A DNA stretch of 64,000 nucleotides, from IMG/VR virus record IMGVR_UViG_3300020187_001966, one strand, 5' to 3'. How positions within the stretch are numbered: the stretch's first letter is position 1; each line of letters begins with the position of its first letter. Shown piece by piece: positions 52,142 through 54,019 of the stretch. The position numbers and the translations under genes are program-made. The stretch comes from a virus. Lineage: Duplodnaviria; Caudoviricetes. Under the pieces are notes generated by a model. It saw only the letters and a list, made by a program, of their open reading frames with translations, was not told the DNA's origin and made no database searches.

Positions 52142-53302
52142 ATGGCAGACAACCTAATGGAAAATTGGGGCGCTACAAAAGACGCCCTCACAGATGGTTT
52201 ATCTGGAACAAAGAAGCAAGTAATGGAATCAGTACTTGAGAACACAAAACGCTACATCGCAGAATCTGCAACAGCGGGTGCTACTCAAGCAGGTAACATT
52301 GCTACACTAAACAAAGTGATTCTTCCAGTAATCAGACGTGTTATGCCAACTGTTATTGCTAACGAAATCGTTGGTGTACAGCCTATGACAGGCCCAGTTG
52401 GACAAATTCATACTCTACGTGTGAGATATGCAGAAACTTTTGACTCAGCAACAGCTGGTGACGAAGCTCTAAGCCCATTTGCAATCGCAACTGGATACTC
52501 AGGTAATGGAACTACAAACCGTGCAGATGCTACAGCATCGCAAGAAGGTTTACCTGGTAAGAAAATGTCAATTCAAGTGTTAAAACAAACAGTTGAAGCG
52601 AAAACACGTAAACTATCAGCACGTTGGACATTCGAAGCGGCACAAGACGCCAATTCAATGCACGGCCTAGACGTTGAAGCAGAAATCATGCAAGCACTTG
52701 CTCAAGAGATTACTGCTGAGATCGACCAAGAGATCATTACATCTCTTACATCACTAGCTGGTACAGCTACTGACACATACGACCAAAGTGGCGTAAGTGG
52801 TACAGCAACATTTGTAGGTGACGAGCATGCAGCACTAGCAGTTCTAATCAACAAAAATGCTAACACAATTGCAGCACGTACACGTCGTGGCGCAGGTAAC
52901 TGGGCAGTTGTTTCTCCAACAGTACTAACAGTACTACAGAGTGCGACTACATCAGCATTTGCACGTACAACAGAAGGTCCTTTTGAAGCACCTACAAACA
53001 CAAAATTCGTTGGTACACTAAACGGTACTATGAGAATTTATGTAAACCAGTACGCAGCAAACGACAACGTACTAGTAGGATACAAAGGCGCAACAGAGAC
53101 AGACGCAGCAGCGTTCTATTGCCCATACATCCCGCTAATGTCAAGTGGCACAGTGCTTGATCCAGACTCATTCGAGCCAGTGGTATCATTCATGACACGT
53201 TACGGATATGTAGAACTAAGCAACCAAGCATCATCGCTTGGTAACGCAGCAGACTACCTATCAGCAATCGCAGTTACATCAAACAAACTAGCATTTGCTT
53301 AA
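52142..53302 (+). CDS. gp23: Major capsid protein gp23
   Basis: VILPVIRRVMPTVIANEIVGVQPMTGP, EAKTRKLSARWTFEAAQD, FYCPYIPL, FMTRYG. Confidence 0.97.
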   Translation: MADNLMENWGATKDALTDGLSGTKKQVMESVLENTKRYIAESATAGATQAGNIATLNKVILPVIRRVMPTVIANEIVGVQPMTGPVGQIHTLRVRYAETFDSATAGDEALSPFAIATGYSGNGTTNRADATASQEGLPGKKMSIQVLKQTVEAKTRKLSARWTFEAAQDANSMHGLDVEAEIMQALAQEITAEIDQEIITSLTSLAGTATDTYDQSGVSGTATFVGDEHAALAVLINKNANTIAARTRRGAGNWAVVSPTVLTVLQSATTSAFARTTEGPFEAPTNTKFVGTLNGTMRIYVNQYAANDNVLVGYKGATETDAAAFYCPYIPLMSSGTVLDPDSFEPVVSFMTRYGYVELSNQASSLGNAADYLSAIAVTSNKLAFA

Positions 53303-53375: not shown

Positions 53376-53404
53376 TTGACATTGGTGTCTACATATGCTA
53401 TATT
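53376..53404 (+). promoter_or_regulatory. Sigma70-like promoter
   Basis: TTGACA, 17 nt, TATATT; no substantial ORF follows. Confidence 0.75.
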
Positions 53405-53410
53405 ATATAC

Positions 53411-53615
53411 ATAGCTTGGGAGATATCCCAGAGTTAGATAGTGCAAGGAATGGCGGTCCGTAGAGGTCGTAACTTGGTTCATAGCTGTAGTGGCAATGCA
53501 AGAGCGTAGAGATACGAAGTTGTATTTTTAGACATAACTGTTTAATATGAAGTTCCCGGATTTGAGCGTGGCTCTACACAAGGGTTGTTGGTATTCACAG
53601 AGTCCAACCTATCAC
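53411..53615 (+). ncRNA. Candidate ~200-nt structured ncRNA of unknown family
   Basis: Own promoter; about 44% GC by hand count; nested helices GATAG/CTATC, GGA/TCC, TAGAG/CTCTA, AAC..TTCATA/TATGAAGTT; GNRA hairpin CGTA-GAGA-TACG. Confidence 0.6.
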
Positions 53616-53619
53616 TTTA

Positions 53620-53627
53620 TATAAATA
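53620..53627 (+). promoter_or_regulatory. T4-type late promoter
   Basis: Exact TATAAATA. Confidence 0.7.
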
Positions 53628-53654
53628 ATAACGTAAGAAATAAGGAATTTTAAC

Positions 53655-53714
53655 ATGTCAAAAACTACAGTACATATTACTTACTGGCCACCATGCGAAT
53701 GGGGAATGTTTTGA
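53655..53714 (+). CDS. 19-aa micro-ORF (MSKTTVHITYWPPCEWGMF), possible leader peptide
   Basis: TAAGGA RBS at proper spacing, late promoter upstream, terminator downstream. Confidence 0.5.
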   Translation: MSKTTVHITYWPPCEWGMF

Positions 53715-53741: not shown

Positions 53742-53776
53742 AAGCCCTTAGCATTAATTTGTTGGGGGCTTTTTTT
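53742..53776 (+). terminator. Intrinsic terminator
   Basis: AAGCCCTTAGCA-loop-TGTTGGGGGCTT followed by a T-tract. Confidence 0.8.
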
Positions 53777-53779
53777 ATG

Positions 53780-53851
53780 AACACACTATGTCCTACTGCA
53801 ATAGGAAGCGTTGCAGCGCATAGATCCCGAAAGGGTCGAAGTTAGTGTGTT
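53780..53851 (+). ncRNA. Compact structured RNA with complementary (kissing) loops
   Basis: 9-bp closing stem AACACACTA/TAGTGTGTT; TCCTA-CTGCAA-TAGGA; GCG-TTGCAG-CGC; GATCCC-GAAA-GGGTC. Confidence 0.65.
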
Positions 53852-53862
53852 TTTAAAAAAAT

Positions 53863-53936
53863 GAGGGTGTAGTGAAATGGTATCACGCTGGTCTCCAAAA
53901 CCAGAAGCAGGAGTTCGATTCTCCTCACCTTTGCCA
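53863..53936 (+). tRNA. trnW: tRNA-Trp (CCA)
   Basis: Full cloverleaf; anticodon CCA at 53895-97; GTTCGATT T-loop; encoded 3' CCA. Confidence 0.95.
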
Positions 53937-53942
53937 AATAAT

Positions 53943-54019
53943 TCTACCTTAGCTCAGTAGGTTAGAGCGCCTGATTGTGGATCAGGAGGTCTCTGGTTCG
54001 ATTCCAGAAGGTAGGACCA
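53943..54019 (+). tRNA. trnH: tRNA-His (GTG), lacking G-1 and carrying A73
   Basis: Cloverleaf with CCTGA-TTGTGGA-TCAGG anticodon arm, TTCGATT T-loop, encoded CCA. Confidence 0.95.

Follow-up and report, generated by a model that had tools for sequence, protein, structure and literature searches.

A conserved folded RNA found before tRNA-Trp and as the spacer of permuted tmRNA genes in marine T4-like phages

What is a compact, hairpin-rich segment doing between a transcription terminator and a tRNA gene in a phage genome? The segment occupies positions 53780-53851, + strand, of the window, by which we mean the whole 64,000-nt stretch of viral DNA that was analysed (Duplodnaviria; Caudoviricetes; IMG/VR record IMGVR_UViG_3300020187_001966). 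A sequence-only reading had described it as a kissing-loop RNA and suggested a ribozyme, a processing element or an exonuclease-blocking RNA.

The outline of the fold proposed in that reading, a closing 9-bp stem and three hairpins, one GAAA-capped and two with complementary 6-nt loops, is confirmed by the sequence. In the closing stem, P1, 53780-53788 pairs perfectly over 9 bp with 53843-53851. Hairpin 1 (53791-53806) has a 5-bp stem and the loop CUGCAA (CTGCAA in the DNA, 53796-53801), hairpin 2 (53808-53819) has a 3-bp stem and the loop UUGCAG (TTGCAG, 53811-53816), and in the window the two loops are exact 6-nt complements. Hairpin 3 (53823-53837), which bears the GAAA cap, is variable in length, and the window carries the short form. 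The junction strands of the window copy, read from the sequence, are UG, A, AUA and GAAGU; the last (53838-53842) is purine-rich, with AAG in every copy and flanking bases that vary. The loops are 6, 6 and 4 nt long, 5 nt lie between hairpin 3 and P1, and the element measures 72-78 nt among copies. Its reported placement, 3 nt past a terminator T-tract and 11 nt before tRNA-Trp, also holds, with the terminator U-tract ending at 53776 and tRNA-Trp starting at 53863.

Energy minimisation gives the four-way junction as the MFE fold of the window element, at -23.2 kcal/mol (z = -2.76); 5 of 200 shuffles did as well. Taken by itself, the fold energy of the window copy is modest support. Since the minus strand folds about as well as the plus strand, the single window sequence decides little.

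Comparative evidence for the fold

We compared 26 distinct sequences in a model-fitted alignment, which leans towards the structure used to fit it; with MAFFT, an alignment of 19 sequences led to the same view. Standard pairs filled 99.3% of the pair cells in the 26 sequences, compared to 31-50% when the partners were slid by 1-3 columns, and 13 of 30 pairs had changed on both sides. Compensatory pairs made up five of nine in P1, four of five in the hairpin 1 stem, two of three in the hairpin 2 stem and one of seven in hairpin 3. None of 500 shuffles reached any of five structure measures. On the opposite strand, the G-U pairs of P1 and of hairpin 3 would turn into C-A; the + strand is therefore the RNA. 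The strong compensatory evolution in four helices, together with near-invariant loops, indicates that selection acts on the RNA. Judged by these substitution patterns, the element is confirmed as a real, conserved, folded RNA. Its junction bases vary within the family: A is replaced by U, AUA by ACA, and GAAG by AAAG, GAGG or CAAG.

Loop 1, CUGCAA, is invariant apart from its last base, and loop 2, UUGCAG, is near-invariant. The hairpin 2 stem of the window and of locus L602 differs from that of the remaining copies. At pair 22/32 of the loop-loop helix, A-U has flipped to U-A independently in two lineages, L215, where the element lies between a terminator and tRNA-Trp, and L602, a diverged tmRNA copy; the L602 flip was read by hand, its 7-nt loop being aligned one column off. 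L215 differs from L119 at three positions only, two of which form pair 22/32. The loop complementarity seen in the window is therefore kept in homologues, with compensatory change in L215 and L602, and the evidence for pairing of the loop-loop helix, which as judged by covariation comes down to one variable position, is thin but real.

As hairpin 1, hairpin 2 and the loop-loop helix all covary, the loops may form a pseudoknot (a kiss), a loop-mediated dimer or a switch. With nearest-neighbour energies, hairpins 1 and 2 together and a nested loop-loop hairpin differed by -2.6 to +5.5 kcal/mol (mean +0.8). The nested hairpin is thus predicted to be about isoenergetic, and the fold may switch rather than kiss. 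By our own reasoning, a full 6-bp intramolecular kiss looks strained with one nucleotide between the hairpins.

Other structures and signals proposed for this segment fared less well. A further helix, CTATG/CATAG, offered by the sequence-only reading, falls away: its pair 10/44 is broken in 15 of the 26 sequences, and it does not beat shuffles. An 11-codon ORF that starts in the junction was rejected as coding, as its ATG becomes ACG or GCG in most tmRNA copies and the substitutions are compensatory for pairing. A minus-strand RNA or a DNA cruciform was discarded because the G-U pairs of the family fit the + strand only. Loop 1 looks like the anticodon loop of a tRNA-Cys, a resemblance that we set aside because the stem is not conserved. 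A scan for consensus promoters found none inside the element.

The element also stands apart from known families. At the gathering level of Rfam 15, only the two tRNAs were matched in the window and nothing overlapped the element. Searches at E ≤ 10 with the short form and the long form (L114) gave scattered chance-level matches only (best E 0.44), and none to hammerhead, HDV-like, twister, twister-sister, pistol or hatchet ribozymes, in line with the sequence-only reading, which saw no hammerhead, pistol, twister or HDV/theta topology. A hammerhead, which has the core strands CUGANGA and GAAA between three stems, was also rejected on its motif, as CUGANGA occurs neither in the junction strands nor elsewhere in the element. 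ARAGORN and RF00005 found tRNA-Trp and tRNA-His only, and the element has neither the D and T loops of a cloverleaf nor a 7-nt anticodon loop, so we set aside a tRNA or tRNA pseudogene. Our literature search found no description of the element, and its designation as an undescribed structured RNA stands on that search and on the Rfam search at E ≤ 10.

The glutamine riboswitch (glnA RNA, RF01739) resembles the element superficially, in that both combine a closing stem with a UCC...GGA hairpin and a GAAA-type hairpin and have GAAG ahead of the 3′ strand. However, the riboswitch is a three-way junction, whereas the element is four-way and lacks both the riboswitch's conserved CGGAAGUA strand and its P1 sequence. 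RF01739 (threshold 35 bits) did not match the element at E ≤ 10, while positive controls in L014 scored 61.4 and 65.7 bits. Real glutamine riboswitches are common in related phages, near tRNA-Trp in L014 and after the tmRNA of phage Melnitz. In L014 (6124-6233), they are two tandem aptamers of 61 and 66 bits that immediately follow a phage tRNA-Trp.

Two genomic contexts and an outer rod

The first, exact pattern for the element matched nothing in IMG/VR. The first homologue, L095, was one contig matched by a 19-mer from hairpin 3, and it lay inside a permuted tmRNA gene. Pattern scans that fixed part of the element, in IMG/VR and metagenomes, brought the family to at least 79 loci plus two diverged copies; these are loci, not independent phages, the two sources overlap partly in origin, and pattern-based scans under-sample both the breadth of the family and the loop covariation. 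In at least 35 loci (context A), the element lies between an intrinsic terminator and a tRNA. In at least 44 (context B), it is the spacer (IVS) of a permuted alpha-type phage tmRNA gene, between the CCA of the acceptor piece and the GGGG of the coding piece. The sequence-only reading had advised a homology search upstream of phage tRNAs; homologues do occur there, before tRNA-Trp, and in the tmRNA spacer as well. In all loci listed, the strand that carries the element is the transcribed one, and it runs in the sense of the tRNAs or tmRNA. The next gene in context A is tRNA-Trp in 34 of the 35 loci listed, and the second tRNA varies (Pro, Tyr, Lys, Met, His or Ser).

ARAGORN calls the context-B genes permuted tmRNAs, and both RF01849 (alpha_tmRNA) and RF04321 (tmRNA_permuted) match them, with the element as an insertion in the models' unstructured loop. 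The homologues occupy exactly the CCA-to-GGGG position of a permuted-tmRNA spacer. The window copy lies outside any tmRNA gene and has its closing stem and head in common with the tmRNA-borne copies. By sequence comparison, the element is homologous to the phage permuted-tmRNA spacer, a relationship that the sequence-only reading had missed.

Covariance model R1 found one copy per locus; the two diverged copies, both in tmRNA genes, were also recovered with R1, at 57 bits for L564 and 42 bits for L602. Each of five incomplete records, 62-141 kb in length, carries a single copy; two copies per genome, by which the contexts could be homogenised, were not seen in these records. Most tmRNA copies have a long form of hairpin 3 (20-21 nt). 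Since short and long variants are each found in both contexts, spacers must have been swapped whole on more than one occasion. A MITE or other DNA repeat was rejected on the single copy per record, the restriction to two contexts, the constant sense orientation and the G-U pairs that fit one strand.

Within what was searched, the element is confined to uncultivated marine T4-like phages. Among 50,697 isolate phage records, close DNA relatives gave tRNA matches only and no element. Neither the 80 IMG/VR loci fetched via the capsid protein nor the 14 fetched via the downstream protein carried it. A partial-pattern scan of 185,579 species genomes gave 0 matches, and an R1 search of 151 Pelagibacterales genomes found none, a search that ran without a positive control and so shows little. 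A conserved small RNA is followed directly by the same late promoter and gene in L087 and L085. Relative to such loci, the window lineage has therefore gained the leader ORF, terminator, element and tRNAs as an insertion.

The pairing does not end with P1. In the window, an intrinsic terminator (53742-53776; 12-bp stem and U-tract), conserved in all context-A loci, ends the transcript of an upstream leader ORF. The U-tract of this terminator has a second role, as one strand of an outer rod, on its 5′ side: 53770-53779 (U-tract plus AUG) pairs with 53852-53861 (UUU plus an A-run), which ends 1 nt before tRNA-Trp and is an A- or purine run in all context-A loci. The tRNA-Trp gene (CCA; 53863-53936) is followed by tRNA-His. 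In the window, 9 of 10 outward positions pair, and the other context-A loci agree; the helix in this context is ~19 bp long and ends 1-2 nt before tRNA-Trp. In context B, 12 of 13 pair, via UGAU opposite ACCA and into the acceptor stem, giving ~22 bp with one A-C mismatch. The extended folds scored z = -5.2 (L114) and z = -6.3 (L155). This extension of the stem to ~20 bp, terminator U-tract included, is a feature that had been overlooked. The element always lies 6-11 nt upstream of an RNase P site, and its position 5′ of the tRNA operon, as originally noted, places it in the leader that is discarded from an RNase P substrate.

The order promoter, leader ORF, small hairpin, terminator, element and tRNA-Trp is a conserved cassette. 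The leader ORF of the window (53655-53714, + strand) has 19 codons with a W-P-P motif and ends ...YWPPCEWGMF; homologous ORFs of 19-20 aa with a W-(x)-P-P motif occupy the same place in L119, L163, L167, L215, L155, L266 and L319. From its sequence, the W-P-P region looks like a leader-peptide cassette for tRNA-Trp. A T4-late-type TATAAATA box and a Shine-Dalgarno site precede the 19-codon ORF (window 53620-53714).

The neighbourhood is a T4-like phage head-gene block with a prohead protease, a scaffold and a Gp23-family capsid protein (52142-53302), whose nearest cultured relative is the capsid of Pseudomonas jumbo phage PA5oct (70% identity). At 53376-53404, a sigma-70-type promoter (TTGACA, 17 nt, TATATT) drives a conserved RNA of ~200 nt (53416-53618). 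This RNA gave a sub-threshold match to the Rfam manA RNA (40.6 bits vs gathering 55.2, E 2.9e-9) and is kept downstream of the capsid gene in L024, L057, L044, L053, L085 and L087.

The tRNA-His of the window (53942-54019) has U at position -1, a U1-G72 pair, discriminator A73 and no G-1. Such a tRNA-His without G-1 is known from a clade of Alphaproteobacteria. Together with the alpha-type tmRNAs of related phages, these tRNA-His features point to an alphaproteobacterium as the probable host of the window phage.

The tmRNA spacer and its passengers

On the spacer of circularly permuted two-piece tmRNA genes, PMC9004378 cites Keiler, Shapiro and Williams (2000), and phage alpha-type two-piece tmRNAs are known in Melnitz and pelagimyophages (PMC9004378). 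The spacer concept, a tRNA-Ala inside a permuted tmRNA spacer and a repeat inside a spacer are described in PMC11915505. In bacteria, the spacer is short and treated as unstructured, whereas the element is a conserved four-way junction that is here relocated before tRNA-Trp. In at least 44 loci the element is exactly the tmRNA spacer, and the window copy keeps the spacer's closing-stem sequence.

A scan of IMG/VR for the 5′ ends of alpha-type tmRNAs showed phage spacers as short as 1 nt and as long as 247 nt or more, the majority closed by similar stems. Their inserts include unrelated hairpin RNAs, T-arm-like pieces and small ORFs with a Shine-Dalgarno site in the stem (L506-L625). The tmRNA (SsrA) of the cultured phage Melnitz (MZ577097; L505 1537-1675) has a spacer of 137 nt, which contains an ORF and gave no R1 match. 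Because spacer length varies and unrelated inserts occur, the four-way fold is not needed for tmRNA maturation. Spacers were 12 nt in five Pelagibacteraceae genomes and 12-45 nt in most alphaproteobacteria sampled. Phage tRNA-Trp genes also occur with no such leader, in L564 and L014.

G154 (L626, G154:C1:56900-58900) has a context-A element and, 0.8 kb downstream on the same strand, a tmRNA with an ORF-bearing spacer. The rods that close the element before tRNA-Trp and the ORF spacer of the tmRNA are nearly identical in sequence.

Two further features of these genes are recorded here. The Melnitz spacer has a GGAG Shine-Dalgarno site and an ATG, its frame runs into the coding piece, and a glutamine riboswitch follows the gene. 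L627 (G156:C1:50200-50500), on the same contig as L114, is a second, truncated tmRNA-like gene with the tRNA-like domain only (Rfam positions 85-169); it has its own, different spacer hairpin insert and is 3 kb away from the element-bearing full tmRNA.

What the element may do

We propose that the element is a passenger RNA carried by a double-stranded processing stem of a generic kind and set free as the flanking stable RNAs mature. We give this reading an even chance of being right. The element is the entire spacer of a phage two-piece tmRNA gene, placed in the window in the 5′ leader of tRNA-Trp, and it has two layers. The outer layer is the rod, 19-22 bp of P1 plus its outward extension, abutting the mature 5′ end of the downstream RNA. 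As phage spacers with quite different inserts carry the same kind of rod, it can be read as a generic processing stem. RNase P would cut at its 3′ foot, and the rod itself would be cleaved by a nuclease specific for double strands, most probably RNase III of the host. We infer the RNase III step from helix length only: 19-22 bp would suit an RNase III substrate (~two turns), and Pelagibacter, a possible host, encodes RNase III. Since structure in the spacer would block 3′ exonucleases from the CCA after the RNase P cut, a cut in or near the rod would be needed.

The inner layer is the head, the four-way junction whose CUGCAA and UUGCAG loops may pair within one molecule or between two. Because the head is kept by selection yet is dispensable for tmRNA maturation, we read it as the passenger. 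It would be released as a discrete RNA of ~75-95 nt upon processing of the flanking stable RNAs and would then act in trans via its near-invariant loops. The constancy of the loops exceeds what mutual pairing would need, which suggests a further binding partner. We infer the excision, the identity of the nuclease, the stability of the released RNA and its action in trans from these arrangements.

Both layers have parallels. Stable RNAs C and D of phage T4, in its tRNA cluster, are passenger RNAs from stable-RNA precursors. Like them and like the tRNA-Ala found inside a tmRNA spacer, the element is small, structured and co-transcribed; those RNAs are freed by tRNA or tmRNA processing enzymes, and the release of the element is putative. 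Unlike theirs, its fold is not tRNA-like, a loop-loop pair replaces the D and T loops, and hairpin 3 is separated from P1 by a strand of 5 nt. RNase III processing stems are found in rRNA precursors and at the R sites of phage T7. They, too, are ~20-bp helices that flank RNAs to be released and are conserved by pairing rather than by sequence, but they have no counterpart to the element's head, and cleavage of the element is putative.

The position of the element could instead mean that it works in cis, with the compact head and rod keeping the leader off the tRNA-like domain or presenting it to RNase P and a 3′-end nuclease, and thereby helping the downstream RNA to fold and to be cleaved properly. 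The position of the element, always 6-11 nt upstream of an RNase P site, fits this view, as does a rod that enters the acceptor stem or stops 1 nt before tRNA-Trp. The near-constant link to tRNA-Trp does so too and could mean a cassette-specific cis role, which is a counterpoint to the passenger reading. However, phage tmRNAs of the same type carry spacers of 1-30 nt or unrelated inserts, the presumed hosts manage with 12 nt, the tRNA-Trp genes of L564 and L014 do without such a leader, and a spacer role leaves the near-invariant loops unexplained; we consider a cis module unlikely. Another possibility is that the element is a small self-cleaving ribozyme of a new class, which would release the CCA end of the tmRNA acceptor piece or shorten the leader of tRNA-Trp; against it, other spacer types manage without the element. 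The compact arrangement of several stems around a junction, the loop-loop tertiary pair and the conserved purines of the junction would suit such a ribozyme, as would a position at which an endonucleolytic cut near the CCA is required, and phage theta ribozymes, which occur next to tRNAs, provide a precedent. Yet no ribozyme model in Rfam 15 matched at E ≤ 10, the junction bases vary among members in a way that a catalytic core would not, and a 2′,3′-cyclic phosphate product would block aminoacylation unless removed. We regard this possibility as quite improbable.

We also give little credence to the view that the element does nothing for the phage and occupies a tolerant slot as a selfish or relic insert, either a mobile sequence of small size or a hitch-hiker that is neutral. 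The spacer is indeed an exchangeable slot that holds many inserts, and the presence of both hairpin 3 variants in both contexts implies repeated exchange. But such an insert sits poorly with one copy per record, two contexts only and a constant sense orientation, and with the compensatory evolution and near-invariant loops that mark the RNA as selected. Finally, the element could be a part of a regulatory cassette for tRNA-Trp, alongside the Trp-codon W-P-P leader peptide and the terminator, with the rod, for example, sequestering the U-tract in read-through transcripts. The conserved order from promoter to tRNA-Trp and the conserved pairing of the U-tract with the A-run speak for it, whereas the element is transcribed only after the termination decision, and the same RNA is present in tmRNA genes that have neither leader ORF nor terminator. 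This explanation strikes us as very improbable.

On a bolder reading, the head might represent a new functional class of phage RNA that piggy-backs on RNase P processing and has moved between tmRNA spacer and tRNA leader. It might be a self-cleaving ribozyme that frees tmRNA or tRNA ends, or a decoy or dimerising RNA that acts in trans via its UGCA-containing loops. We put this forward tentatively, as a possibility that we doubt more than we favour. The element is short and comes with a covariation-backed model, which makes it amenable to direct tests. In abundant marine phages, it is also a marker of exchange that links tRNA clusters with tmRNA genes. The spacer of two-piece tmRNAs, so far treated as throw-away, holds a strongly selected fold that is also used as a tRNA-Trp leader; phages thus appear to use the precursors of stable RNAs as launch pads for small RNAs.
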